Source of the DNA: a virus
IMG/VR virus record: IMGVR_UViG_3300036944_000932
DNA length: 36,964 bases
Direction: 5' to 3' (one strand)
The translations under genes and the position numbers were made by a program. The notes below the pieces were generated by a model that saw nothing but the letters and a program-made list of their open reading frames with translations, ran no database searches and was not told where the DNA came from. This document shows, piece after piece, positions 3,020-33,119 of this stretch; the first letter of the stretch is position 1, and each line of letters starts with the position of its first letter.

Positions 3020-4130
3020 CCTCGAGTTGCTGGTAAACGGTACGAACTATTTTGGCTGGACTTCGCTCGGTGTGACCCGTGCCGTAGATGCTTCCTCAGG
3101 TGCTTTCACTGTGACGCTGACAGAGCGCTGGGAAGGACAGGACGGCATGGCCGCTCAAGATGAGCCGTGGCCAATCCTGCCCGGTGATCGTTGTGAAGTG
3201 CGGCTTGGCGGAATTCCGATGGTGATCGGCTACGTCGACATCTTCAAACCCTCGTTCAGCGCGACCGACCACACCATCAACATCCAAGGGCGCGATCGAA
3301 CGGCCGATTTGATCGATTGCAGCGCGGTTCATAGCCCTGATGAATGGAAGAACATCGACCTTCTGCGCTTCGCCCAGATTCTGGCAAAACCGTTCGGGGT
3401 TGGGGTTTCTGCTGAAGCGCCGGTGGGCGAGGCCTTCTCGGTATGCAAGCTGCAGCAGGGTGAAACGGCTTTCGAAGCGATTGAGCGTTACGCGCGGCAG
3501 AGACGGCTGTTGCTGATGCCGGACGGTGCCGGCGGCCTGTTGATCACGCGGGCTGGCAATAAGCGCGCATCGGTTGGCCTGGTCCAGGGCGAAAACATCC
3601 TGAGTGCGTCGGGCAGCATCGACCATAGCCAGCGATTCAGTAATTACTTGGTAAAAGGCCAGGCCGCATACAACCCGTACAGCGAAGGCGAGACGGAGGC
3701 GCATATCGAGGGCGGTGCCAGTGACAGCGGCATCAGGCGATACCGGCCCTTGTTGGTCGTTGCCGAATCAGGCAGTTCAAACAGCAGCGCCCAAGAGCGT
3801 GCAACCTGGGAGGCCAACAGCCGGCTGGGTAAATCGGCCAGCGCATCTATCACAGTCCAAGGCTGGCGCCAAAGTCCGGGCGGCCCGTTGTGGGAGCCAG
3901 GGATGCTGGTGCAGGTCAAGGCGCCGTGGCTTCGCATGGATGGGCAAATGATCATCCGGCAGGCCACCTATGAGCGCGGCGACGGTGGCACCACCACGAA
4001 ACTCGACATCGTAAGCCCGCAAGCCTTTTCGCCCGAACCACCGGACTCAAAGAAAGGGAAGAAGGGCAAGAAGGGTGGGCGAAACATTTGGTCGGAAGCC
4101 ATCGGGGAAGAGGACAAAAAGGATGGGTAA
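3012..4130 (+). CDS. Baseplate hub protein (Mu gp44/P, late-control-D-like)
   Basis: The in-frame ATG at 3012 overlaps the upstream stop (3017-3019). Size and position match Mu gp44. The longer N-terminus in the ORF track (2982) lies inside the previous gene. Confidence 0.7.
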   Translation: MDDLELLVNGTNYFGWTSLGVTRAVDASSGAFTVTLTERWEGQDGMAAQDEPWPILPGDRCEVRLGGIPMVIGYVDIFKPSFSATDHTINIQGRDRTADLIDCSAVHSPDEWKNIDLLRFAQILAKPFGVGVSAEAPVGEAFSVCKLQQGETAFEAIERYARQRRLLLMPDGAGGLLITRAGNKRASVGLVQGENILSASGSIDHSQRFSNYLVKGQAAYNPYSEGETEAHIEGGASDSGIRRYRPLLVVAESGSSNSSAQERATWEANSRLGKSASASITVQGWRQSPGGPLWEPGMLVQVKAPWLRMDGQMIIRQATYERGDGGTTTKLDIVSPQAFSPEPPDSKKGKKGKKGGRNIWSEAIGEEDKKDG

Positions 4131-4641
4131 CCCAGTTCGCGATCTCGGCAACCGCGTGATGATGATGTTCGGCCGCGGAGTCCTTCGTGGCGTCAACGAC
4201 TCAAATGGCCGTCAGCAGTTGCAGGTCGAGCTGCTGAAGGGCGAGCTGCGAGACAGCGTCGAACACATGCAGAACTACGGCTTCACTAGTCATCCCCAAG
4301 GCGGTGACGTTGCGGTGGCCTTCATTGGTGGAAACCGGGAGCAGGGCATTGTGCTGGTGGTCGACGACCGCCGCTACCGGATCCCGTTGCAAGCTGGAGA
4401 AGTTGCCATTTATGACGACCAGGGCAACAAAATCGAATTGCTGCGCGACATGGTGAAGGTCACGGCTGTCCAGCATGTCGAGGTGCTGGCGCCAACGATA
4501 AAGCTGATTGGCGATCTTGAACTGGTCGGCAACATGAAAATCCTGGGGAATATCGATTCCACGGGAACGATCAAGAACAACGGCAAGTTCGTCGACAGCA
4601 CACATACCCATAGCAACAGCGGCGCAGGAGTACCGAACTGA
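4123..4641 (+). CDS. Baseplate assembly protein V / central spike (Mu gp45-like)
   Basis: ATG 4123 overlaps the upstream stop (ATGGGTAA). The motif ...LLKGELRDSVEHMQNYGFTSHP...VAFIGGNREQGIV is typical of phage_base_V proteins. Confidence 0.8.
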   Translation: MGNPVRDLGNRVMMMFGRGVLRGVNDSNGRQQLQVELLKGELRDSVEHMQNYGFTSHPQGGDVAVAFIGGNREQGIVLVVDDRRYRIPLQAGEVAIYDDQGNKIELLRDMVKVTAVQHVEVLAPTIKLIGDLELVGNMKILGNIDSTGTIKNNGKFVDSTHTHSNSGAGVPN

Positions 4642-5108
4642 TGGCCGATGCCGCAATGGTAATGACCGAGATCGGCGGCGACCTGGTGCTGTTCGGATTC
4701 GACTTGGAGCGTGATGACGGGCTGGAGACGGCGGTGATCATCAGCCTGTTCACCGACCGTCGCGCCAGCGCCGAGCAGATTCCACCTGAGTATGCGCAGG
4801 ACGACCTGCGCGGGTACTGGGGCGATATCACCAATGCATCGGCGACAGACCAGACAGGTTCTCTGCTGTGGCTGCTGGCCCGAGAGAAGCAACTGCCTCA
4901 GACCCTGAGTCGCGCCGAACAGTACTGCCGCGAGGCGCTGGCCTGGATGATCGAAGACTTGGTGGCCACGAAGATCGCGGTCTCCGCGTCGTATTACTCC
5001 CAGGGCGTGATGTTGCTGGAAATCGACATCTACCGGCCTACCGGCCCAACTGTCCGTTATCGATACAACTACGAATGGTCGGCTCAGGCCGGCAAGAGGG
5101 CTGCCTGA
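4641..5108 (+). CDS. Baseplate protein, GP46 / gpW / gp25-like
   Basis: The 155-aa ORF starts on the previous stop. The motif DLERDDGLETAVIISLFTDRRA...GYWGD is characteristic of the Mu gp46 family. Confidence 0.75.
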   Translation: MADAAMVMTEIGGDLVLFGFDLERDDGLETAVIISLFTDRRASAEQIPPEYAQDDLRGYWGDITNASATDQTGSLLWLLAREKQLPQTLSRAEQYCREALAWMIEDLVATKIAVSASYYSQGVMLLEIDIYRPTGPTVRYRYNYEWSAQAGKRAA

Positions 5109-6166
5109 TGCCATTTGCTCGACCCACGTTACCGGAACTCATCGACCGGGTTACCACCGACATCAGCGGGCGCGTGACTGGCGTTCAAAGTGCGGTGCTT
5201 CGCCGATCTCTACTCGGGATCCTCGCCCGTTCCGAGGCCGGTGCGGTGCACATGCTGTACGGCTTCCTCGAATGGGCAGCCAAGCAGGCAATCATCGATA
5301 CCGCGGAGAAGGAATACCTCGAGCGATGGGCCGCGATCTGGAAAGTGTTCCGTAAGGCCGCCGACTTTTCCACCGGAGACGCGCTGCTCGTGGGCGCTGT
5401 TGGCTCGCCTGTTCCTGCAGGAACGATTGTTCAGCGACAGGATGGCGTGCAATACCGCGTCATGGCTGATGGGGAATTTGCCAGCACCACGCTACAGGTC
5501 ACGGTGGTGGCTCTGGAGGCTGGCGCCGATGGTGACTGCCCGGCGGGTACGCCACTATTTCTGTTTTCCCCAGTGCCCGGCGTTCAGTCAACCGGCTCGG
5601 CGGCTACGGATATCGACGGCGGGCTTGATGTTGAAACGGATCCTCAGCTGCTCAACAGGTTGTTGAAGCGGATCCGCCAACCGCCTCACGGTGGCGCCGC
5701 ATCCGACTACGAGCTCTGGGCGTTAGAAGTTGCCGGTGTCACTAGGGTATGGGTGTATCCGCTACAGATGGGGCTTGGAACGGTGACGATCCTATTTGTT
5801 TGTGATGGTGAGTCCGACATTGTTCCGGACGCTGCCAAGGTCGCCGAGGTTCAGGACTACATCAACGAGCGCTGCCCGGTCACCGCCGAGGTGTTCGTGG
5901 CGGCCCCTGTGGCTGACCCGCTTAATTTGGCCGTGAGGCTGTCGCCGAACACAGCTGCTGTACAGGCTGCTGTCCGGGCTGAGGTTGCCGATCTGATTGT
6001 TCGCGACTCCAAACCGGGCAGCCCGATCCTAATTAGCCGGCTGCGCGAGGCCGTTTCCATTGCTGCAGGTGAGTCGAATAACGAGATCACGTCACCAGCA
6101 GCGGACATACCGCACGCAGCCGGGCACATGGCGGTGCCCGGCACCATAACTTTCTCCAGCTTTTAA
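5108..6166 (+). CDS. Baseplate J-like protein (Mu gp47-like)
   Basis: ATG 5108 overlaps the upstream TGA (TGATG). The N-terminus MPFARPTLPELIDRV and the 352-aa size fit baseplate J. The track start at 4868 lies inside the upstream gene. Confidence 0.75.
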   Translation: MPFARPTLPELIDRVTTDISGRVTGVQSAVLRRSLLGILARSEAGAVHMLYGFLEWAAKQAIIDTAEKEYLERWAAIWKVFRKAADFSTGDALLVGAVGSPVPAGTIVQRQDGVQYRVMADGEFASTTLQVTVVALEAGADGDCPAGTPLFLFSPVPGVQSTGSAATDIDGGLDVETDPQLLNRLLKRIRQPPHGGAASDYELWALEVAGVTRVWVYPLQMGLGTVTILFVCDGESDIVPDAAKVAEVQDYINERCPVTAEVFVAAPVADPLNLAVRLSPNTAAVQAAVRAEVADLIVRDSKPGSPILISRLREAVSIAAGESNNEITSPAADIPHAAGHMAVPGTITFSSF

Positions 6167-10229: not shown

Positions 10230-10278
10230 TGGTGCCGGCACCAGGAGTCGAACCCGGGACCTACTGATTACAAGTCAG
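10230..10278 (-). other. attP core: 3' 49 nt of a tRNA-Thr(UGU) gene (anticodon arm to CCA), not a complete tRNA
   Basis: The reverse complement reads ctgaCTTGTAAtcagtaggtcccgggttcgactcctggtgccggcacca. This gives anticodon loop CUUGUAA, a T-arm, the acceptor 3' strand and CCA. It closely parallels E. coli thrU from memory. No D-arm or 5' acceptor strand follows. Confidence 0.8.
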
Positions 10279-10462
10279 CCCCCTTAGTCAGTATCGGCAT
10301 AGCGTGCAGAGCTTCTTTTGTACGTTAGTTATATGGGTTTCGCCCTTGTTTTGCTGGTAACGCCGCCATTGATGTACGCGGAAAAGACTGGGGTTCTGTC
10401 CAGCATTCTCTACCTCCTGACTGTGGATAAAGCTGTGGGCAGCTTTTGGTTTAATCAGTTGC

Positions 10463-11611
10463 TCAATCACCCGACGGGTTAACGGTTGGCACGCTGAGGT
10501 CGTACACATCCATCATTGATTCGTCCTTGTGCCCGGACGCTTGTTGCTTGTCTGCGCGGGTTCCCACCGTGTCGGTGATGCCCTTGCGCTTGAAGTCGTG
10601 CATACCGAAGCGCTGCTCCTCGGTGAGGATTCCTTTGTCGATCGCCTGGACGATCAGCCGCTGGAAGGCAGTGTCGAGCCCGGACTTCGACAACTGCATG
10701 CCGGTGGCTGAGATGATCAGGAAGCGCTGGTCTGCGCGGATCGGGACGGGGACACGCTTGCGCTCCCAGGTTTCCGATCTGACGGCCTTGGCTGCATCCC
10801 AGGCGGCGCGCAGGCGAGTAGACCAGCGGACGATGTTGTCCCGGCTTCCCTTGCGGCGGTTTGTGAGGACGCCTTCGGTGAGCTCGTTCTCGTCGGTGAG
10901 GGTGATCGTCTCGATACCGCGTAGGCGGCAGAGGTATCCGATTTCCATCACGTACCACAGGTAAGGGGAGCAGGCCCCGGGCTGGCCGCTCTTGAGCTGG
11001 CCTTGCTGCTGCGCGAACCTGATGAGATTGACCATCACCGTGTCGTCGGGCAGCCTCCGCTGCTTGCGCTCTTTGGGCGACTCGATGCCTTTGGCGGGGT
11101 TGTCCTTCACGAACCCACGGTTGCGACCCCATTGCATCACGCGGCGCAGGTAGCGCAGGGCGTGCGCGGCCTTCGATGGCTTTCCCTCCTGAGCGATCTT
11201 GTCGATGATCCTCTGGATCAGTGCTGGCGTGAACTTGAGCACCGCCAGCTCGCCCAGCGGCTTGCCTAATTTTGTCGGGAACGCCAGAAGTACGTCGCGG
11301 GAGTAGACGTAGTCGTCGTGAGTTTTCGGGCTGAGCACCTTGTACTGGTCGCTCTTGTGGAATTCGTCGCATAGATACTGGAGGCTGTCGCGGTCTACGC
11401 CGTTGCGTTCCTCGATGAGGCGGTGAAGCTCTGACAGCGTCACGTTACCCGCACACAGGTTTTGCCGCTGGCGCCTGCCGGCTTCATTGAAATAGAGGAT
11501 GTACCAGCACCCCGCCCCGCGGTGGTCGAAATACACCGACCGTGGCAGGGCCGCCTGGTCAATGTGCCCAGGTATGTTCGGGTTGTGCTGGCGCTTCCTT
11601 CCTCGCTTCAT
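10463..11611 (-). CDS. int: Tyrosine integrase with N-terminal arm-binding domain
   Basis: 382 aa. Motifs CRLRGIE, HDFKRKG and GHKDESMMDVY (R..H..R..H/Y). It lies adjacent to the tRNA-derived attP. Confidence 0.9.
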   Translation of the reverse strand: MKRGRKRQHNPNIPGHIDQAALPRSVYFDHRGAGCWYILYFNEAGRRQRQNLCAGNVTLSELHRLIEERNGVDRDSLQYLCDEFHKSDQYKVLSPKTHDDYVYSRDVLLAFPTKLGKPLGELAVLKFTPALIQRIIDKIAQEGKPSKAAHALRYLRRVMQWGRNRGFVKDNPAKGIESPKERKQRRLPDDTVMVNLIRFAQQQGQLKSGQPGACSPYLWYVMEIGYLCRLRGIETITLTDENELTEGVLTNRRKGSRDNIVRWSTRLRAAWDAAKAVRSETWERKRVPVPIRADQRFLIISATGMQLSKSGLDTAFQRLIVQAIDKGILTEEQRFGMHDFKRKGITDTVGTRADKQQASGHKDESMMDVYDLSVPTVNPSGD

Positions 11612-21987: not shown

Positions 21988-23360
21988 GCCGCGAACTTTT
22001 CAGTGAAGAGGCCGAGTTCGGCGTCCTCGGTGCGGTGCTACTCAAGCCTGAGTTGTTCGACGAGGTTTCCAGCAGGGTGTCTGTGTCGGACTTCCATGAT
22101 CTGGAGAGTGCTGCGTTGTACCAGGTCATGATCGATTGCCACGCCGCCTGTGTTCCTATCGATGTCGTCACGTTGAGCGATCGTCGCCAAAACCTGCCCA
22201 GCGGCAAGCCGACGATTGTTCATGCTGGCGAGGTCGCCATGCACGTACCGAGCACTGCCAACTGGAAGGAATACGCTCGAATTGTTCGTGAGCGGGCAGT
22301 TCTCCGGCAGGTTGTACAGGCTGCTGAAGTGATCCGCGATCAGGCAACGGATGAGATGCCGCTTGCCGATATCATCGCCCTGGCACAGCAGGCCACGGCG
22401 GATCTACGTGATTTAGACGACGATGGTCAGCAGGATTACTACAAGGCCAGCGACATCCTGACCAGCGTAATCAATACCATTGATTCGAAGTTCAACAAGA
22501 CGGCGCCTGCTGGCCTCTCGACTGGGTTGAAGGATCTTGATGAGCTGGTCTGTGGATTACGCCCGGGCAACGTGATCGTCATTGGAGGGCTGACCGGTTC
22601 CGGAAAGACCATTCTTGGCTTGCAGATCGCCCAGCACGCCACCTGCAAGCGCGATGGTGTGGGCCTTGCGTTCTCGATGGAGATGACCAAGGAGGAACTG
22701 ATCACACGCGGTATAGCGTCCATCGGCGCCGTCAATCTGAGCGCCTTGGACAGCGGCGATCTAAGTGACGACGACTGGCCGCGTATCACCAGCGCGGTCA
22801 GCGTGCTCAACGAGGCCAAGCTGTTCGTCAATGACCAAGCCGGCATGACGGTGGCCCGCATCCGCTCAATTGCCCGCCAGTGCCAACGTAGGGAAGGGCT
22901 GAGCATCTTGTTGATTGATTACATCCAACTGATCAGCGCAGAGAGCAACTCCAACCGGTCCTTGGAGGTCGGGAAGATATCCACTGCTCTGAAGAACCTG
23001 GCCAAGGAGCTCAAGATTCCGGTGGTCGTGCTGGCCCAGCTCAACCGCGGTTCAACCAACCGACCGGACAAGCGCCCGCGCCCGAGCGATATCCGTGACT
23101 CCGGCCAGATCGAGCAGGACGCCGACGTGGTGATTCTTGTGCATCGGGACATGGAGAGCGAGGAAGGGCAAAACGGCGTAACTGAGCTGATCGTGGGCAA
23201 GGTACGTCACGCTCGTGTTGGGTCCTGCATGGTTCAGCAGCAGGGCAAGTATGTCCGGTTTGTCGACTTCGAGGGCCAGCCGCCCAGCAACGAAGATGTC
23301 GAGATGGGTCGAACGAGCTATGCCAGCAAGTACAGCAAGGGGCGGAAAAATCATGAATAA
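21984..23360 (+). CDS. dnaB: Replicative DNA helicase DnaB
   Basis: Motifs GLRPGNVIVIGGLTGSGKT, LLIDYIQLI, VVVLAQLNR and IEQDADVV. Confidence 0.9.
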   Translation: MSRELFSEEAEFGVLGAVLLKPELFDEVSSRVSVSDFHDLESAALYQVMIDCHAACVPIDVVTLSDRRQNLPSGKPTIVHAGEVAMHVPSTANWKEYARIVRERAVLRQVVQAAEVIRDQATDEMPLADIIALAQQATADLRDLDDDGQQDYYKASDILTSVINTIDSKFNKTAPAGLSTGLKDLDELVCGLRPGNVIVIGGLTGSGKTILGLQIAQHATCKRDGVGLAFSMEMTKEELITRGIASIGAVNLSALDSGDLSDDDWPRITSAVSVLNEAKLFVNDQAGMTVARIRSIARQCQRREGLSILLIDYIQLISAESNSNRSLEVGKISTALKNLAKELKIPVVVLAQLNRGSTNRPDKRPRPSDIRDSGQIEQDADVVILVHRDMESEEGQNGVTELIVGKVRHARVGSCMVQQQGKYVRFVDFEGQPPSNEDVEMGRTSYASKYSKGRKNHE

Positions 23361-23640
23361 CGTCACGGCGGTATTGCCGCGAAAGAGCATGAGCGATTTG
23401 GAGCGACGCTTCCTCAAGATCGCAGGCGAAGAGCTGGCCAAGGTCAAGGTAGGCGGACCAAACGCACTGGCTTACCTGTTGGACATGGTCGCCAGTTGGC
23501 ACGGCAGTCGCGCACAGATCGGCTTCCACGACTTCGGCCAACGCTGGCTGATCGAGGGCAACGCCAAGAACAAAACCGCTGACCGGTTGCTTCGTGACCT
23601 GTTTGGCCTGAGTGATCCAGATCCGAGGAAGGCGGCATGA
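23353..23640 (+). CDS. Hypothetical 95-aa protein
   Basis: ATG 23353 lies just before the dnaB stop. The track start at 23215 lies inside dnaB. Confidence 0.55.
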   Translation: MNNVTAVLPRKSMSDLERRFLKIAGEELAKVKVGGPNALAYLLDMVASWHGSRAQIGFHDFGQRWLIEGNAKNKTADRLLRDLFGLSDPDPRKAA

Positions 23641-24026
23641 AGAAACGCACTTATGTAGGCAAGGCCCTGGGCGACACCGAGTGGTTGCTGGAGCAATGGG
23701 GGTTCTGGCGAATGGATGGGATGGGAGTGCCTCGGTATGTGTCTCCCCTTTATGCGCTGATCCGCGACAACGTCCCGTGCGAAGGCGGGGTGAAGGAATA
23801 CTCGCTGACGGATGACCTGGCCCTGGTGGTGGACGGCGCTGTCGCTCGCCTAATCAACCGAGACGATCAGATGGGCAATTTCATCTGGCTCTACTTTGGC
23901 GCCAAGTGGCCAGCCCTGCGAATCGGCAGGGAAAACGGCATTGGTGAGGCGAAGGCCAGGGAGATCATCAAAGCCGGCGTTGCCTGGATTGACTGCGCCT
24001 TGGAAGGGATTCGTGAAGCCGCGTAA
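23637..24026 (+). CDS. Q: Late-gene antiterminator Q (phage 21/82 type)
   Basis: The pattern LLEQWGFW....D.LALVVDGAVARL....FIWLYFG.....IGRENGIGEAKAREIIKAG resembles the Phage_antitermQ family (compare phage 21 Q LERWGAWA). It is the last gene of the early-right operon. Confidence 0.7.
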   Translation: MKKRTYVGKALGDTEWLLEQWGFWRMDGMGVPRYVSPLYALIRDNVPCEGGVKEYSLTDDLALVVDGAVARLINRDDQMGNFIWLYFGAKWPALRIGRENGIGEAKAREIIKAGVAWIDCALEGIREAA

Positions 24027-24101
24027 AAAAGTCTTTCCACGCGGATAACGACCTGTTTTCATGGCACGGTGTTCAGCTGTTTCAGCGGCGACACCACAGG
24101 A

Positions 24102-24130
24102 AAGCCCGGCCTATTCGCCGGGCTTCTTTG
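24102..24130 (+). terminator. Terminator after Q
   Basis: 9-bp stem aagcccggc/gccgggctt with loop ctattc, followed by cttt. Confidence 0.65.
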
Positions 24131-24155
24131 CGAATGTAAAGATGTCTTTCTGCCA

Positions 24156-24184
24156 TTGCAGGTATTTGGATCCGTGCGTAGAAT
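24156..24184 (+). promoter_or_regulatory. Strong sigma70-type promoter (candidate PR'-like late promoter and/or moron promoter)
   Basis: TTGCAG (24156-24161), 17 nt, TAGAAT (24179-24184). A second -10-like GCGTAGATT lies at 24204-24212. Confidence 0.65.
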
Positions 24185-24218
24185 CGCCGTCCCACGGGTC
24201 AAAGCGTAGATTCTCAGT

Positions 24219-24875
24219 ATGGATAGCGGAGCGGTTACGGCGGTCAAGGCTGCTAATGAAGAGTTGCCTGAACGTAATGTGATCGAACTCAAGTCCATAG
24301 TGAATGTCGAAACTGTTACCCCCCTGATTCAGGCGCTTAACGCGGCAGTTGACGGGGATGTGCTTGAGATTCATATTCGGCACAACGGTGGTGGCGAGGT
24401 GGATTCGCTAATAGCGCTTTTGAGAGCTATTGTGAGCACCAAGGCTCAAGTCGATATCACTATCGGCCGATATGTTATGAGTGCGGCTGCGACGTTGTGG
24501 CTGTGGTTTTGGTTGTGGCCTGTACCGCATGTGAATGCGCTCATGCCCCTGAAACCAGCCGTTTTGATGTATCACCGTCCGAGACAATCGTGCGGTAACA
24601 ACGGCGACTATTACTGTTTCGCCGAGAGCCTCAAAGATGGAGATCCTGTCAAGCAATCGTTACTCGACAAGATCAAGATTTTTGACGAGCTTTTCGACGC
24701 TCTGCTACAACGACTAGGTTGGTCTAGTCTCAGCGATGCGTCACTGGTTCTCGAAGATGTGTCTTACCAGCATCACCTACAGCATTTGAAAGAGGCATAT
24801 TACGGGAATAAAGACTGTGTCTTTCCCGTTTTCCCCGACCAAGGAGCTACACATGAAGACGTTCGCGCTGAGTAA
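24219..24875 (+). CDS. ClpP/SppA-fold serine protease-like protein (stand-alone, outside the head module)
   Basis: By-eye alignment to ClpP: IHIRHNGGGEV, GRYVMSAAA (Ser), LMYHRP (His) and EAYYGNKD (Asp). It has an unusual LWLWFWLWPVP insert. No obvious SD sequence precedes the ATG. Confidence 0.6.
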   Translation: MDSGAVTAVKAANEELPERNVIELKSIVNVETVTPLIQALNAAVDGDVLEIHIRHNGGGEVDSLIALLRAIVSTKAQVDITIGRYVMSAAATLWLWFWLWPVPHVNALMPLKPAVLMYHRPRQSCGNNGDYYCFAESLKDGDPVKQSLLDKIKIFDELFDALLQRLGWSSLSDASLVLEDVSYQHHLQHLKEAYYGNKDCVFPVFPDQGATHEDVRAE

Positions 24876-25026
24876 CAAGGCGTTCAACAGCAACCAGAAT
24901 GTCAAGCCAAACCTTGACATGTCTTTGGAGCAGCTGCGCCGTTTCAAAGAAGCTGATGACAGTCTGCAAGCTGCCTGCGTACGTCTAGGAATCGAAACTC
25001 CTAAGCTGGTAGCTCAAGCCCGCTGA
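24853..25026 (+). CDS. 57-aa soluble protein, 3'-overlapping partner of the ClpP-like gene
   Basis: An AAGGAG RBS lies 6 nt upstream of ATG 24853. It overlaps the upstream ORF by 23 nt and a terminator follows. Confidence 0.5.
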   Translation: MKTFALSNKAFNSNQNVKPNLDMSLEQLRRFKEADDSLQAACVRLGIETPKLVAQAR

Positions 25027-25041
25027 TTCCGCACTATAAAG

Positions 25042-25070
25042 AACCCGGCCTAACGTGCCGGGTTTTTTTA
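25042..25070 (+). terminator. Rho-independent terminator closing the cassette (tR'-like)
   Basis: Stem aacccggc/gccgggtt followed by ttttt. Confidence 0.8.
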
Positions 25071-25212
25071 TGACCGATTTTTGTCTAGCCCAGCCAGCCC
25101 GCTGAGTTTCTCATTTCTGGAAGAGAGGGCACATTGGCGGGCAATCCGGTATGAATCCATAGTTGGTGGAAATGGTAGGGGTTCTACTTCTTCGCCTTCC
25201 GCCACTTTATAG

Positions 25213-25242
25213 GCCTCGCTCTGTGCGGGGCTTTTTCGTTTT
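25213..25242 (+). terminator. Second tandem rho-independent terminator
   Basis: Stem gcctcgc/gcggggc (one G-U pair), loop tctgt, then tttttcgtttt. Confidence 0.6.
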
Positions 25243-25314
25243 CGGCTCCACCACACCCATTGCTCCGAGCTGGGAGTGCTGTTGGAGCTGACTTAAATCC
25301 GCACGGTACCGCCA

Positions 25315-25632
25315 ATGACTGAAGTCTCGCGCATTGCAGACAGCACCACGTTCAAGGTGGCTGTCCCGATACTGCAAACGATCCTGTCGGCCGGTGCCAT
25401 TGGCGCGTTTGTTTATGTCGTCGGGTCGCTTGGATCGCTCCAGGTGCAGCTAGCCGCCTACCAGACCAATCAGGCTTTAATCGGCCAGCGGGTTGACTCT
25501 TTGGAGCGCTCAAGGGAATCGACGGACAAGTTGGTCGATTCCCTTCGCACATCAACTCAGCGCCAAGAGTTCCAGATCAACCAGGTAGGTGAAAGCCTCA
25601 AGGCTCTCGCCCAGATGGGTAGACCCAAGTGA
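25315..25632 (+). CDS. Membrane-anchored coiled-coil protein (i-spanin-like or holin-associated)
   Basis: Hydrophobic VAVPILQTILSAGAIGAFVYVVGSLGSL is followed by a Gln/Leu-rich coiled coil. No clear RBS. Confidence 0.55.
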   Translation: MTEVSRIADSTTFKVAVPILQTILSAGAIGAFVYVVGSLGSLQVQLAAYQTNQALIGQRVDSLERSRESTDKLVDSLRTSTQRQEFQINQVGESLKALAQMGRPK

Positions 25633-25871
25633 AGCGTCTTCTGATCGTCCTCATGCTGCTCACTGGTTGCGCGCAGAAAGAAACGATCCAGGAGCCTCCC
25701 AAGGTTCAACGCACCACCGTGTACCGATATGTCAGCGGGCAGTGTGTTGCTGACGAAGGCAAAAGCGACCAGTTGCGCGAAGCGCTGAAAAGCCGCGATC
25801 AGTGGAAGCGTTACGCCGAAAGCCTCGAGCAACTACCTGCAGCGAAGACAGCTCATGATCCTAATCCCTGA
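25629..25871 (+). CDS. Small lipoprotein (o-spanin-like or exclusion lipoprotein)
   Basis: The GTG start overlaps the upstream stop (GTGA). The lipobox is LLTGC and the mature part is about 60 aa with one further Cys. Confidence 0.6.
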   Translation: MKRLLIVLMLLTGCAQKETIQEPPKVQRTTVYRYVSGQCVADEGKSDQLREALKSRDQWKRYAESLEQLPAAKTAHDPNP

Positions 25872-26088
25872 ATGGCGAAAGTTCTGGCGCATGACCAGTG
25901 TTCAATTGGCAATCGCCGGCGCGGTGCTGAACGCCGCGGCGGCCGGCTGGTCGGTGTTTCAGGGTGCGGTGGATCCTCTGGTTTTTGCCGTGGTAAACAT
26001 GGGCCTAAGCATCGGCGTAGCCGTCGCCAGAGTGGTGCAGCAGTCGAAGTTGCATGAGCCGAGTGATGAGCCAGCTCAGCCAGAATAG
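25855..26088 (+). CDS. 2-TM small membrane protein, putative class II holin
   Basis: TM1 SVQLAIAGAVLNAAAAGWSVF, TM2 PLVFAVVNMGLSIGVAVARVV, and a charged C-terminal tail. It lies at the head of the late operon. Confidence 0.5.
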   Translation: MILIPEWRKFWRMTSVQLAIAGAVLNAAAAGWSVFQGAVDPLVFAVVNMGLSIGVAVARVVQQSKLHEPSDEPAQPE

Positions 26089-29639: not shown

Positions 29640-31156
29640 GCATGCTCGACAGCTTGTTTCCTGGGTACGCCGCGAAGCGTTCGGATGCGCGACTGAAAAA
29701 GCTGCGCACCGAGATGACGATGGACCTGATCAAGCGCCGGTTCGAGGGCGCAGCTGGTGGTCGCCGAAACGATAGATGGCGCGCCACCGGTGCCGATGCA
29801 AACGCAGAGAATGCCCCCGCCCTTGCGAAGCTTCGCAATCGTGCCCGCGACCAACGCCGTAACAACCCGTTCGCTGAGCGAGCTATCACCGGCATCGCTG
29901 ATAACACGGTAGGCGCTGGTATCGTGCCGCTGCCATTGGCCAAGCGCGACCGTGACGGCCTGCGCTTGATGGACTTGTGGAAAGCTTGGGCCGAAACCAC
30001 CTGCTGCGATGCTGACGGCCTGGAGGATTTCTACGGCCTGCAGCACATGGTCATGGAGGCCGTCGCCGAAAGTGGCGAGTGCTTGATCCGCCGCAGGCGT
30101 CGATTCAGTTCGGACGGGCTACCTGTTCCGGTCCAGCTCCAAGTTCTAGAGGCTGACTTTCTCGACGAAAATAAGGCGACGATCCTCGGTTTAAATGAAG
30201 TCATTCAGGGGGTCGAGTTCGACGCCCTTGGCCGCCGAGTCGCCTATTGGTTGTTCGACAGACACCCAGGCTCCAATGCAGCGTGGGGCTCCCTGCAATC
30301 AACTCGTGTTCCCGCTGAAGACGTTATTCATGTGTTCTTGCGTAAGCGCCCAGGACAGGCTCGTGGTTACACCTGGTTGGCCCCGGTCATCCAGCGCATG
30401 AGCAGCTTCGACGAGATGGAAGATGCCGTCATGGAGCAGGCGAAGATTGCGGCGTGCTTTGCGGCATTCGTCACCAAGGACCCTGAAACACATACAGGCG
30501 TGAAGAAGGGACCTGCGCTTATTGATCGAATGGAGCCTGGGATTGTTCAGGAATTGTCGATGGGGGAGGCGGTGAGCTTCGGCACGCCGCCAACTTTCAA
30601 TGGGTACACAACGTATTCCTGGCAAGCGCTCCATGCAATCGCGGTCGGTCTGGGCGTCCCTTACGAACTGCTGACCGGCGACCTAAAGGGCGTCAACTTC
30701 TCCAGTGGTCGCATGGGTTGGCTCAACTTTGCCCGCCGCGTTGACGTATGGCAGTGGCGAATGCTGATCCCTCAGCTTTGTGACCAGGTATGGCGCTGGT
30801 TCATGGAAGCCCAAGTCCTGTTGCCGGGCGGGGTGACCGATGACGTCAAGGCTTACTGGGTTCCCCCGCGCCGCGACATGGTCGATCCGAAGTCTGAAAC
30901 CGAGAACGTCATCACGCGGGTGCGTAACGGGTTGACTACCTGGCCGGATGCTTTGCGCGAACTCGGCATTACGGACCCGAAACGTCACGCAGAGCAAATC
31001 AAGAAAGCCAACGAAATGATCGACGAGTACGGCTTGGTCCTGGATTGCGACCCGCGCCGAGTCGCGGCCGCCGGCTCACCAAGTCAGCCGCCACCAACCG
31101 AAGAGAAACCAGACGATGCCAACTCCGAATCAGGCGACGACCAACAAGACGCATGA
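29636..31156 (+). CDS. Portal protein (lambda gpB family)
   Basis: 506 aa. RNNPFAERAITGIADNTVG and HAIAVGLGVPYELLTGDL...SSGR parallel lambda B motifs. Confidence 0.88.
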   Translation: MSMLDSLFPGYAAKRSDARLKKLRTEMTMDLIKRRFEGAAGGRRNDRWRATGADANAENAPALAKLRNRARDQRRNNPFAERAITGIADNTVGAGIVPLPLAKRDRDGLRLMDLWKAWAETTCCDADGLEDFYGLQHMVMEAVAESGECLIRRRRRFSSDGLPVPVQLQVLEADFLDENKATILGLNEVIQGVEFDALGRRVAYWLFDRHPGSNAAWGSLQSTRVPAEDVIHVFLRKRPGQARGYTWLAPVIQRMSSFDEMEDAVMEQAKIAACFAAFVTKDPETHTGVKKGPALIDRMEPGIVQELSMGEAVSFGTPPTFNGYTTYSWQALHAIAVGLGVPYELLTGDLKGVNFSSGRMGWLNFARRVDVWQWRMLIPQLCDQVWRWFMEAQVLLPGGVTDDVKAYWVPPRRDMVDPKSETENVITRVRNGLTTWPDALRELGITDPKRHAEQIKKANEMIDEYGLVLDCDPRRVAAAGSPSQPPPTEEKPDDANSESGDDQQDA

Positions 31157-31163
31157 AACGCCA

Positions 31164-33119
31164 ATGCTTAGCCTGCGCGCCGCCGTGCGTGAAGGCTCGG
31201 TTGATGTCGAGCAGCGCACCGTTGAGCTCACCTGGACCACAGGCTCGAAAGGCCGGCGCTGGTCCTGGGACATCGGCAGTTATATGGAAGAGCTCGAGGT
31301 CAGCTCCAAGGCGCTACGTCTCGACCGGCTCAACAACGGCGCGCCGTTCCTGAACGCCCATAGCTCGTATGAGCTTTCAGACGTGATTGGCGTTGTAGAG
31401 AAGGCTTGGCTCGAAGGCGAAGAGGGCCGCGCTTTGGTCCGCTTCAGCCAGCGCGAGGACGTCGAAGGCATCTTCCGGGACGTGCAAGACGGGATCCTGC
31501 GGAACATCAGTGTCGGCTATGCCGTTCACCGCTACGAGGTAGTGGAGGAGGAAGACGACAAGCTGCCGACTTACCGCGCCGTCGATTGGGAGCCGCTGGA
31601 GTTGTCCTTGGTCCCCATCGGTTTTGACGATGGCGCCAAGATCCGCAGCGCCGAAACCGCCGCTAATTATAAGGGCCAGCGCTTCAACACCATTTTTGAA
31701 GTTCGCGAGGTGCAACAACCTCTCGACCAACCGGCCGCCGTGGCCAACACCACCGAGGAAAACCCGATGACTGAAGAAGAAAAGCGCGCGGCCGAGGACC
31801 TGATCCGCCGGCAGGCGGAAGAGGCCGAGCGTAAACGCAGCCTGACCATCCGCCAAATGGCGAAGAAGGTGGGCCTTGCTGATGAGGTAGCTGATGATCT
31901 GATCGCTCGCGGCATCTCGATTGCCGAAGCCAGCGCCGCATTGATCGACAAAGTGGCTGAGCGCCAGGCCGGCACCCAGACGGAAAGCCGCAACAGTCAG
32001 CCAACCATCGTTGGCGGCCTGGACCAGGCTGTTCTGACGGCAAAGCGCGAAGCGATGCAGAATGCTTTGCTCAACCGTTGCAACCCGACCATCGCTTTGA
32101 TCGACGGTGCGCGTGAGTTTCGCGGTATGCGCTTGCTCGATCTGGCGCGTGAATGCGTGGAAACTGTCGGCGGTAATGCGCGCGGCATGCTCCCGCAAGA
32201 AGTCGCCCGGGCCGCTCTCGGTTGTGACCGCACGGCCATGCGCGCCGCCGGTATGCAAACCACCAGTGATTTCCCTGTTCTGCTCGGCGGCGGGGTAACC
32301 CGCACCTTGCGTGATGCTTACGCCCAGGCGCCACAGACCTGGCGTCCACTGGGGCAAATGACCACTGTTCCAGACTTCCGGGCCACGACTCGCGCAGCGC
32401 TGGGCGATATCTCCGCGCTGGAAGAAGTCAAAGAGCACGGCGAGTACAAGTACGGCAAGCTCGAAGAAGACGGTGCTCCGATCCGCGTTACCAAGTTCGG
32501 CAAGATCATTGCCATCACGTGGGAAGCGGTTATCAACGATGACCTGGGGGCGCTGACTCGAATTCCTCGAGCTTACGGACTGGCTGCAGCTGAGACAGAA
32601 TCCAATCTGGTTTGGAATTTGATCCTCAGCAACCCGAACTTCACCGACGGCACTGCCATCTTCGTCGCAGGTCACGGCAACATCGCAGGCAGTGGCGGAG
32701 CGATCAACACCACCACGTTGGGCGCCGCTCGCGCTGCAATGCGTAAGCAAAAATCCAAGGCGGGTGCGTTCCTCAACGTTGAACCACGTTATTTGGTGGT
32801 TGGTCCTGACAAGGAACTGGAAGCCTTCCAGTTCACCAGCTCCCAGTACGTTCCCGCGAAAAACTCGGATATCAATGACGGTCGCAACACGTCGCTCATT
32901 GTCATCGTCGACGGTCGCATCACCGGTAACCAGTGGTACCTGTTTACCGAGGCTGGCCTCATCGACACGTTCGAGTACGCCTATCTGGAAGGTGAGCCAG
33001 GCGTGTTTACCGAGACCCGTGAGGGCTTCGAAGTTGACGGCATGGAAATCAAGGCACGCTTGGTGTTCGGTGCTGCCTGGATCGATTACCGCGGAGCGTA
33101 CAAGAACCCAGGCGCGTAA
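31164..33119 (+). CDS. Prohead protease / scaffold / major capsid fusion protein
   Basis: The N-terminus has HK97-type S78 protease motifs (LNAHSSYELSDVIGVV, ISVGYAV). The middle is Glu/Arg-rich coiled coil. The C-terminal roughly 330 aa is capsid-like. The start is uncertain (ATG 31164, or 31116 overlapping the portal gene). Confidence 0.8.
   Translation: MLSLRAAVREGSVDVEQRTVELTWTTGSKGRRWSWDIGSYMEELEVSSKALRLDRLNNGAPFLNAHSSYELSDVIGVVEKAWLEGEEGRALVRFSQREDVEGIFRDVQDGILRNISVGYAVHRYEVVEEEDDKLPTYRAVDWEPLELSLVPIGFDDGAKIRSAETAANYKGQRFNTIFEVREVQQPLDQPAAVANTTEENPMTEEEKRAAEDLIRRQAEEAERKRSLTIRQMAKKVGLADEVADDLIARGISIAEASAALIDKVAERQAGTQTESRNSQPTIVGGLDQAVLTAKREAMQNALLNRCNPTIALIDGAREFRGMRLLDLARECVETVGGNARGMLPQEVARAALGCDRTAMRAAGMQTTSDFPVLLGGGVTRTLRDAYAQAPQTWRPLGQMTTVPDFRATTRAALGDISALEEVKEHGEYKYGKLEEDGAPIRVTKFGKIIAITWEAVINDDLGALTRIPRAYGLAAAETESNLVWNLILSNPNFTDGTAIFVAGHGNIAGSGGAINTTTLGAARAAMRKQKSKAGAFLNVEPRYLVVGPDKELEAFQFTSSQYVPAKNSDINDGRNTSLIVIVDGRITGNQWYLFTEAGLIDTFEYAYLEGEPGVFTETREGFEVDGMEIKARLVFGAAWIDYRGAYKNPGA

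Follow-up and report, generated by a model that had tools for sequence, protein, structure and literature searches.

The DNA stretch analyzed here (the window; IMG/VR virus record IMGVR_UViG_3300036944_000932, 36,964 nt, GC content of 0.582) is the genome of a temperate Pseudomonas phage. Between the gene for the antiterminator Q and the late genes, it carries a horizontally acquired two-gene cassette (positions 24098 to 25121), located in a slot whose cargo varies between phages. The cassette encodes a 218-amino-acid (aa) protein with a predicted ClpP-type fold and a 57-aa partner. We show that the two genes belong together as one conserved, translationally coupled module and that this pair moves as a unit between cargo sites of several kinds, one of them a Vibrio integron cassette. 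According to PADLOC, Pfam, NCBIfam, and the literature searched, the pair is uncharacterized and unnamed, and we tentatively propose a toxin-like or defensive role for it.

A foreign two-gene cassette in a variable cargo slot

The limits of the cassette are those of a block shared with a prophage of Pseudomonas karstica (L017; loci outside the window are designated by L numbers), where the block adjoins an unrelated late regulator (Table 1). Upstream replication genes are common to the window and L017, and the Q region of the window (23348 to 24097) is without counterpart in L017. An earlier, sequence-only reading of the window had described a self-contained accessory cassette made of five successive elements, namely, a hairpin, a promoter, the 218-aa and 57-aa open reading frames (ORFs), and a terminator. 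Sequence, ORFs, and folds agree with the positions of all five, and the view of a foreign, self-contained insert is borne out by its composition, its own expression signals, the block shared with L017, and the different cargo of phage LESphi2. The cassette had also been described as less GC rich than its flanks, and we found a GC content of 0.502 for positions 24131 to 25075 versus 0.582 for the window. The GC content at third codon positions is 0.53 in the large gene and 0.59 in the small gene, versus 0.72 to 0.75 in the genes for Q, DnaB, and TerL.

Purifying selection acts on both ORFs, which are real genes. Homologs of the large protein form 40 clusters and those of the small protein form 15. 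Comparison with the P. karstica copy gave ratios of nonsynonymous to synonymous substitution rates (dN/dS) of 0.067 for the large gene and 0.058 for the small gene, at a dS of ∼1, where synonymous sites are nearly saturated.

Phage LESphi2 (L028, OQ594955) has a Q related to that of the window (∼68% nucleotide identity over the Q region), and its Q-to-holin slot (3437 to 4213) contains genes for a RelE-like toxin, a transcriptional regulator, and tRNA-Met. The slot recalls the moron site of lambdoid phages between Q and the lysis genes, which holds stx, for example. As in those morons, the cassette is preceded by Q and a terminator and followed by late genes, has its own promoter and terminator as read from the sequence, deviates in composition, and occupies a slot whose content varies between sibling phages. 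In contrast to them, its cargo is an uncharacterized protease with a partner rather than a known toxin, and it is also found outside phages.

Table 1 Features of the cassette and of its surroundings in the window
Feature	Position	Strand	Details
Antiterminator Q gene	23637..24026	+	129 aa; PF06530, 29.8 bits (cutoff, 26); phrog_79, 2e-28; context, outside the cassette
Candidate Q-dependent late promoter (PR'-like)	24034..24062	+	Predicted; TTTCCA, 17 nt, TGT-TTTCAT; extended -10
Mobile block, whole	24098..25121	+	80% identical (blastn) to P. karstica prophage L017, 3885-4905
GC-rich hairpin, probable tR'-like terminator of a short late-promoter leader RNA	24102..24130	+	Left edge of the shared cassette block
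Cassette promoter (predicted)	24156..24184	+	TTGCAG (24156-24161), 17 nt, TAGAAT (24179-24184); 34 nt from the end of the -10 to the start codon
Gene for a divergent ClpP-fold Ser/His peptidase (predicted)	24219..24875	+	218 aa; AF2 and Foldseek, invariant residues, phrog_1827; dN/dS, 0.067
Ribosome-binding site of the small gene	24841..24846	+	AAGGAG; inside the end of the large gene, 6 nt before ATG
Partner gene	24853..25026	+	57 aa; overlaps the large gene by 23 nt; 15 homolog clusters; dN/dS, 0.058
Intrinsic cassette terminator (predicted)	25042..25070	+	Stem AACCCGGC/GCCGGGTT, then T7; -18.6 kcal/mol, z of -4.1
Degenerate remnant of a second terminator	25087..25121	+	Aligns with intact AGCCCAGCC...GCTGGGCTTTTTCG of L017 (P. 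karstica); right edge of the shared block
Terminator-like hairpin (25211-25233) and conserved late-operon leader	25211..25302	+	Scan match of 9 pairs; fold z of -2.2

The protease and its small partner form one conserved module

In every closer homolog examined, a gene encoding a partner of 53 to 60 aa was found directly 3' of the protease gene, either overlapping it or starting within 20 nt of it, behind a ribosome-binding site. We saw this pair in P. aeruginosa, P. knackmussii, P. fluorescens and metagenomic relatives, P. putida, Pseudomonas sp. LRF_L74, P. helleri, Enterobacter hormaechei, and Vibrio parahaemolyticus. In P. aeruginosa, 512 contigs encode the large protein (P0185) and 547 encode the small one (P0054), always annotated as hypothetical.

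The partners follow a common design, composed of a short N-terminal motif, M-x-x-(F/L/I)-x-(L/A), a polar stretch, an amphipathic helix with the pattern L-x-R-(F/L)-Q-x-A-D-x-x-L-Q-x-x-C, a G-(I/L)-x-x-P motif, and a short hydrophobic tail. The partner in the window contains the conserved motif as G-I-x-x-P, followed by its short hydrophobic tail. Modeled alone with AlphaFold2 (AF2), it forms one helix (residues 21 to 44) with disordered ends.

Two diverged versions of the protease were noted in P. helleri (JBQQHV010000022.1, L026), one beside an integrase (P0168) and one of the regulator-to-holin type (P0037). For both, the longest contig measures 64,601 nt, so that a single prophage may carry two paralogs of the pair, although this could not be confirmed.

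The pair occupies cargo sites in prophages and a chromosomal integron

A search for the same pair in other prophages found it again in regulator-to-holin gaps and at further cargo sites. In the first kind of site, it lies between the late regulator (Q or an alternative of 181 to 203 aa) and the holin gene. In a P. knackmussii prophage, it is found at the tmRNA-proximal end, after the endolysin gene and two small genes (possibly encoding spanins). It is located between mutS and an integrase gene in P. putida and Pseudomonas sp. LRF_L74, directly 3' of the integrase gene in P. helleri, and between the tape-measure and minor-tail genes in a prophage of Enterobacter (E. hormaechei). In V. parahaemolyticus (L021), the pair makes up exactly one cassette of a chromosomal integron, with nothing else in it; attC-type repeats at ∼4800 to 4937 and ∼5785 to 5922, 985 nt apart, bound this cassette, and the Vibrio array that contains it also holds ParE.

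None of the prophage contexts examined places the protease gene in a head module, beside portal or capsid genes. The distribution of the family is patchy: it was found in 4 of 185,579 representative genomes in a species survey, all from Pseudomonas, and only 1 of 50,697 deposited phage genomes carries the cassette, with the protease gene left unannotated.

The most distant family members were seen next to defense-like genes (L029, 4686 to 5603; L030, 1 to 2896). These neighbors include a 305-aa protein whose start resembles, by eye, a zinc ribbon (CxxC...CxxC), as well as CapR-domain and PIF1-helicase genes.

The cassette has its own expression signals

The cassette promoter had been called near-consensus, a description that proved too strong, as it matches the consensus at 8 of 12 positions (3 of 6 in the -35 box) and a consensus promoter scan made no call at 24156 to 24184. 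The assignment itself is backed by comparison with other cassettes. Most of the diverged cassettes that we examined have a TAGAAT-like -10 box at 32 to 36 nt from the start codon, on its 5' side. The Vibrio integron cassette has TTGCGC-17-TAGAAT, and L019 and L026 have TAGAAT at a similar distance from the start. The corresponding boxes are TTGCGG-17-TAATAT in L017, TTGCCT-17-TATCAT in L002, and TAAAAT in both L010 and L007, and L018 has TTGATG-17-TAGAAT, 61 nt from an uncertain start. At the other end, all Pseudomonas loci read have a strong terminator after the small gene (L001, L002, L005, L007, L010, L013, and L017). Because the -10 geometry and the terminator recur across loci, we consider that the cassette has its own σ70-type expression signals, and, at the level of sequence, the module carries its own promoter and terminator. 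Reading the promoter as a σ54 promoter was ruled out by the wrong spacing.

In L017, an inverted repeat (ATGGCG-TAA-CGCCAT, ∼3930 to 3960) abuts the -35 box of the cassette, and partial or imperfect inverted repeats were seen in the window (24140 to 24160) and in the upstream regions of L010 and L013. The repeat ATGGC-N5-GCCAT was considered as an operator and is too inconsistent among loci for such a claim.

The 218-aa protein is a predicted ClpP-fold peptidase distinct from ClpP

We then analyzed the sequence and the modeled structure of the 218-aa protein. Neither PF00574 (the ClpP family) nor any other relevant Pfam entry matches it, and its relatives reach 18 to 19.4 bits against PF00574, under the cutoff of 20.2. 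The best NCBIfam match is NF045542 (ClpP-related head-maturation protease), with 17.2 bits against a cutoff of 120, and PHROGs gave phrog_1827 ("ATP-dependent protease"; 5e-8, residues 25 to 109). The AF2 model, built with 30 homologs, has a predicted local distance difference test score (pLDDT) of 82 and a predicted template modeling (TM) score of 0.78. When it was compared to the PDB with Foldseek, the best 50 matches were all ClpP (E values of 7.5e-7 to 3e-6, probability of 1.00), with TM scores of 0.47 to 0.65 over ∼190 columns and 12 to 16% identity. The model also matches phage Clp proteases in a library of viral structures. The protein is therefore modeled as a ClpP-type alpha/beta fold.

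Sequence profiles were less sensitive. The profile of the protein matched ClpP entries of the PDB with E values of 0.04 to 0.5, over the N-terminal half only; other single-sequence and profile searches against the PDB likewise gave just marginal matches to ClpP or NfeD in that half, and a wider profile gave repeat-summed matches to protein A, which we regarded as spurious. An alignment of the family with E. coli ClpP by hhalign, for which the query sequence was approximate, was weak and shifted in register around the Ser, and we did not use it.

An exhaustive profile search collected 26 clusters at E values of <1e-10, and 24 family members, with identities down to 19%, were aligned. Six residues are invariant in this alignment (G58, G59, S88, A91, H119, and P121), and six more are nearly so (N56, R122, D156, Y194, N197, and D199). 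They compose the key motifs of the protein, N56-x-G58-G59, S88, H119-R-P121-R, and N197-x-D199. An alignment of hidden Markov models pairs S88 with the nucleophilic Ser of M. tuberculosis ClpP2, and in the AF2 model S88 lies at the junction of a strand (77 to 87) and a helix (88 to 99). H119 is located at the end of the strand formed by residues 114 to 118, in an H-R-P motif comparable to H-Q-P of ClpP. Since Ser88, His119, Pro121, and the GG pair are invariant down to 19% identity, the protein has likely retained catalysis.

The sequence-only reading had aligned the protein with ClpP/SppA-type proteases and proposed a Ser, a His, and an Asp. The ClpP fold, the Ser, the His, and the oxyanion motif are upheld by our analysis. 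The Asp is not: it corresponds to D199 (EAYYGNKD), which we assign to the noncatalytic YGLVD motif on the basis of the numbering of E. coli ClpP. The catalytic Asp of that protein is Asp171, in ERDRF, and EAVEYGLVD ends in the noncatalytic D186. By sequence register, the equivalent of Asp171 would be D180 or Q184/H185. The residue at D180 is variable, and conservation of H185 is confined to the closer clades (Pseudomonas, Vibrio, and Enterobacter), distant members having lost it from the alignment. As judged from the family alignment, the conserved Ser-His pair is thus the safe statement about the active site. The same reading took the Trp-rich segment LWLWFWLW for an atypical insert. In the AF2 model, this segment lies within helix 88 to 99, the canonical helix that follows the Ser in ClpP, and the true extra segment is a variable loop at residues ∼100 to 113.

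The N terminus also sets the family apart. Residues 1 to 18 are disordered (pLDDT of <50) and unconserved, strand 1 starts at residue 19, and the homologs from Vibrio, Enterobacter, and metagenomes start directly at strand 1. In ClpP, the N-terminal axial loops and the first helix gate the pore and contact ClpX or ClpA. According to the models, the protease family is devoid of this gate.

Overall, the protein resembles ClpP (MEROPS S14, PF00574), the core of ClpXP and ClpAP, in its predicted fold, in the Ser at a strand-helix junction, in the His of an H-x-P motif, in a GG oxyanion motif (NGGGE in the cassette protein versus NSPGG in ClpP), and in a C-terminal Y-G-x-x-D-like motif. It nevertheless departs from ClpP proper in several respects despite its character of a ClpP-fold peptidase. 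It is only 12 to 16% identical to ClpP and passes no Pfam or NCBIfam model; it has no N-terminal axial loops and no first helix, and no conserved equivalent of Asp171 was found; its post-Ser helix is rich in Trp and it has extra loops at ∼100 to 113 and 122 to 142; and it comes with a small partner protein and travels on mobile elements.

Phage head-maturation proteases (NF045542; fusions, NF045540) are likewise phage-borne ClpP-fold proteins, and several members of the family reach 17 to 20 bits with NF045542. Unlike them, the cassette protease remains far under the 120-bit cutoff and sits in cargo sites. Moreover, the phage encodes its own 667-aa fusion of prohead protease and major capsid protein (31116 to 33119), with a full-length match to NF045541 (753.7 bits); only the capsid part of this fusion matches the ClpP-like fusion family NF045540, and hhalign detected no relation between the cassette protease family and the N terminus of the fusion. 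These data, together with the positions outside head modules in all contexts examined, indicate that the cassette protein is not a head-module enzyme, in line with the earlier view that it is not needed for head maturation.

Phage backbone around the cassette

The backbone genes of the window encode a CI-like repressor, DnaB, Q, a gpA-type terminase, a lambda-type portal, the protease-capsid fusion, and a tail sheath. Just 3' of the stop codon of Q, the noncoding sequence from 24027 to 24062 shows nucleotide conservation in many P. aeruginosa phages whose Q is related. Matches to the post-Q block reach positions 24062 to 24125 of the window, and L002 (1792 to 2889) aligns with 22964 to 24062. 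We consider 24027 to 24062 a candidate Q-dependent late promoter with its Q-binding region; the consensus promoter scan made no call at 24034 to 24062.

The hairpin at 24102 to 24130 has a 9-bp GC stem (-20.6 kcal/mol, z of -4.2), and 0 of 200 shuffled sequences fold as well. The run of T's that follows the stem (TTCTTTG) is weak, and no terminator was called there by the consensus scan. A terminator was found at the equivalent position in L002, LESphi2, and L017. This hairpin is more likely the tR' of the Q-dependent late promoter than the mere end of the Q transcript, and the late promoter and the hairpin would together yield a leader RNA of ∼65 nt, by analogy with the PR'-6S-tR' arrangement of lambda.

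In P. aeruginosa prophages that carry the protease pair, Q is separated from the cassette by a longer leader of ∼300 nt with two terminators, in which Rfam and tRNA scans found nothing. Judging from its sequence, which is shared with LESphi2, this leader is part of the phage backbone and not of the cassette.

Downstream of the cassette, positions 25225 to 25288 are 92% identical to L010 and positions 25226 to 25302 are 80% identical to L013, in both cases just upstream of their late genes. Because of the 92% identity to L010, we assign 25211 to 25302 to the phage backbone rather than to the cassette; this late-operon leader is common to phages with different late regulators.

Beyond the cassette lie three small late genes (25315 to 26088), beside which no endolysin gene was identified. 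The first encodes a 105-aa protein (phrog_34293, function unassigned). The second encodes an 80-aa protein with weak Rz1/spanin-like matches, whose N terminus (LLTGCAQ) resembles, by eye, a lipoprotein signal, and the third encodes a 77-aa DUF7940/holin-like protein. Elsewhere in the window, a weak tRNA match on the minus strand (10233 to 10298; Rfam RF00005, 30.1 bits against a gathering score of 29) adjoins a 382-aa ORF, also on the minus strand (10463 to 11611), without a Pfam match at 1e-5; the two may represent the attachment site and the integrase region.

DISCUSSION

The constituents described here are of kinds already known: the enzyme is a predicted peptidase of the ClpP fold, and the cassette is a two-gene unit of the cargo or toxin-like kind. 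What is new is the conserved protease-partner module, its mobility, and the recurrent geometry of its promoter.

We propose that the pair may function as a toxin-antitoxin or abortive-infection-type module with an ungated ClpP-fold protease as its effector, a reading that we favor tentatively and hold at somewhat under even chances. We lean toward it because the gene pair is minimal, self-expressed, and tightly coupled; because of its niches, which comprise prophage cargo slots, the slot that contains a RelE-like toxin in LESphi2, and an integron array in which ParE is found as well; because its distribution is patchy and crosses genera while its composition is foreign; and because a conserved catalytic core without a gate recalls toxic, deregulated forms of ClpP. 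When ClpP is activated by acyldepsipeptides or truncated at its N terminus, its gate is open and it degrades unfolded proteins independently of an ATPase, which is toxic. The analogy with the cassette protease, whose family appears to be naturally devoid of the gate region, is mechanistic only.

In the proposed mechanism, the pair would be transcribed from the cassette promoter in the lysogen, and, in lytic growth, Q-modified RNA polymerase would additionally read through the cassette, which would lie after tR' as stx does in Stx phages. The ungated protease would act as the effector, cutting proteins without an ATPase partner, and the small, largely disordered partner would restrain it as an inhibitor, a plug, or a decoy substrate. 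Loss or titration of the partner, for example, after infection by another phage or loss of the element, would then free the protease. Labile antitoxins often consist of a helix with disordered ends. Type II toxin-antitoxin cassettes, such as the RelE-like one of LESphi2 and ParE of Vibrio, are likewise coupled two-gene units with their own promoter in the same niches, and the small partner of the cassette is largely disordered, as in such systems. In contrast to them, the cassette contains no known toxin or antitoxin domain and no partner with a DNA-binding fold, and its putative effector has a ClpP fold.

Several points weigh against this proposal. As the sequence-only reading had anticipated for named defense systems, PADLOC gave no significant match (the best one for the protease had an E value of 0.0016 and 15 bits over a stretch of 24 residues, and there was none for the partner). 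Pfam and NCBIfam relate the pair to no known toxin, antitoxin, or defense family, and the literature searched, including work on integron defense, contains no link between a ClpP-like protease and a toxin-antitoxin or defense pair. The large gene comes first and the small one second, which is the less common order for type II systems, and the partner has no recognizable DNA-binding domain, unlike most type II antitoxins. No conserved acidic residue was found at the position of ClpP Asp171 in the family alignments. Finally, the most distant family members change partner, with an unrelated acidic 59-aa protein in L030 and a larger neighbor in L029. Whether the module would represent a new class of toxin-antitoxin or abortive-infection system, defined by an ungated ClpP-fold effector and a labile helical plug of ∼55 aa in a minimal cassette that spreads across prophage slots and integrons of Gammaproteobacteria, is a more doubtful matter, and we put this forward only as a possibility.

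The same observations would suit a selfish module of mobile elements and integron arrays that acts solely by postsegregational killing, with no antiphage role. Chromosomal integrons of Vibrio are known to contain toxin-antitoxin cassettes that have their own promoters. Nothing computational separates such addiction from defense; prophage cargo slots often hold defense genes, and we deem a role in addiction alone improbable.

Another reading makes the partner a dedicated substrate, whose disordered ends would be trimmed by the protease to give a peptide or a matured protein (a signal, an exclusion factor, or a bacteriocin-like product). The strict linkage and translational coupling of the two genes would fit such processing, as would the disordered N- and C-terminal segments around a single helix and the motifs conserved near both ends of the partner (MKTFALS... 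and G-I-x-x-P with the short tail). Judging from its sequence, however, the small protein has neither a signal peptide nor a hydrophobic segment; no export or modification genes travel along with the pair, the Vibrio integron cassette being limited to the two genes; and conservation of the partner does not extend to the most distant family members. We consider this role unlikely.

The location downstream of Q, and upstream of or beside the lysis genes, in most Pseudomonas prophages could point instead to a late function that benefits the phage. Expressed by Q read-through, the protease would degrade a host defense or stress protein, remodel proteostasis, or tune the timing of lysis, and the closest families below threshold are indeed those of phage proteins, the ClpP-related head-maturation proteases and phrog_1827. 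Such a function is hard to reconcile with a conserved promoter and terminator belonging to the cassette itself, with its occurrence as a Vibrio integron cassette and by integrases beside mutS, away from late genes, and with its presence in only 1 of the 50,697 deposited phage genomes. The slot, moreover, varies in content, with a RelE-like toxin module in the case of LESphi2. We therefore give this reading little credence.

Least probable, to a degree that we would call very unlikely, is a noncatalytic ClpP-fold pseudoprotease or adaptor that binds host ClpX/ClpA or ClpP rings and redirects proteolysis with the partner as a cofactor, for although no conserved Asp was found at the Asp171 position of the family and the protein falls below every curated Clp model, the invariance of Ser88, His119, Pro121, and GG down to 19% identity argues for catalysis, and the missing N-terminal loops are those that touch the ATPases in ClpP.

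The toxin-antitoxin or abortive-infection proposal lends itself to experiment, since the cassette is easy to test, being ∼1 kb long with its own promoter. Because the P. aeruginosa version is present on more than 500 contigs, the module could affect the outcome of phage therapy and the competition between prophages in a clinical pathogen. If a role in defense or addiction were true, the fold of self-compartmentalizing proteases would join the effectors of immune and toxin systems, and the cassette would be a natural counterpart of the artificial unleashing of ClpP-type proteolysis by acyldepsipeptide antibiotics. Whatever its function, this work defines a previously unnamed protein family together with its obligate partner.

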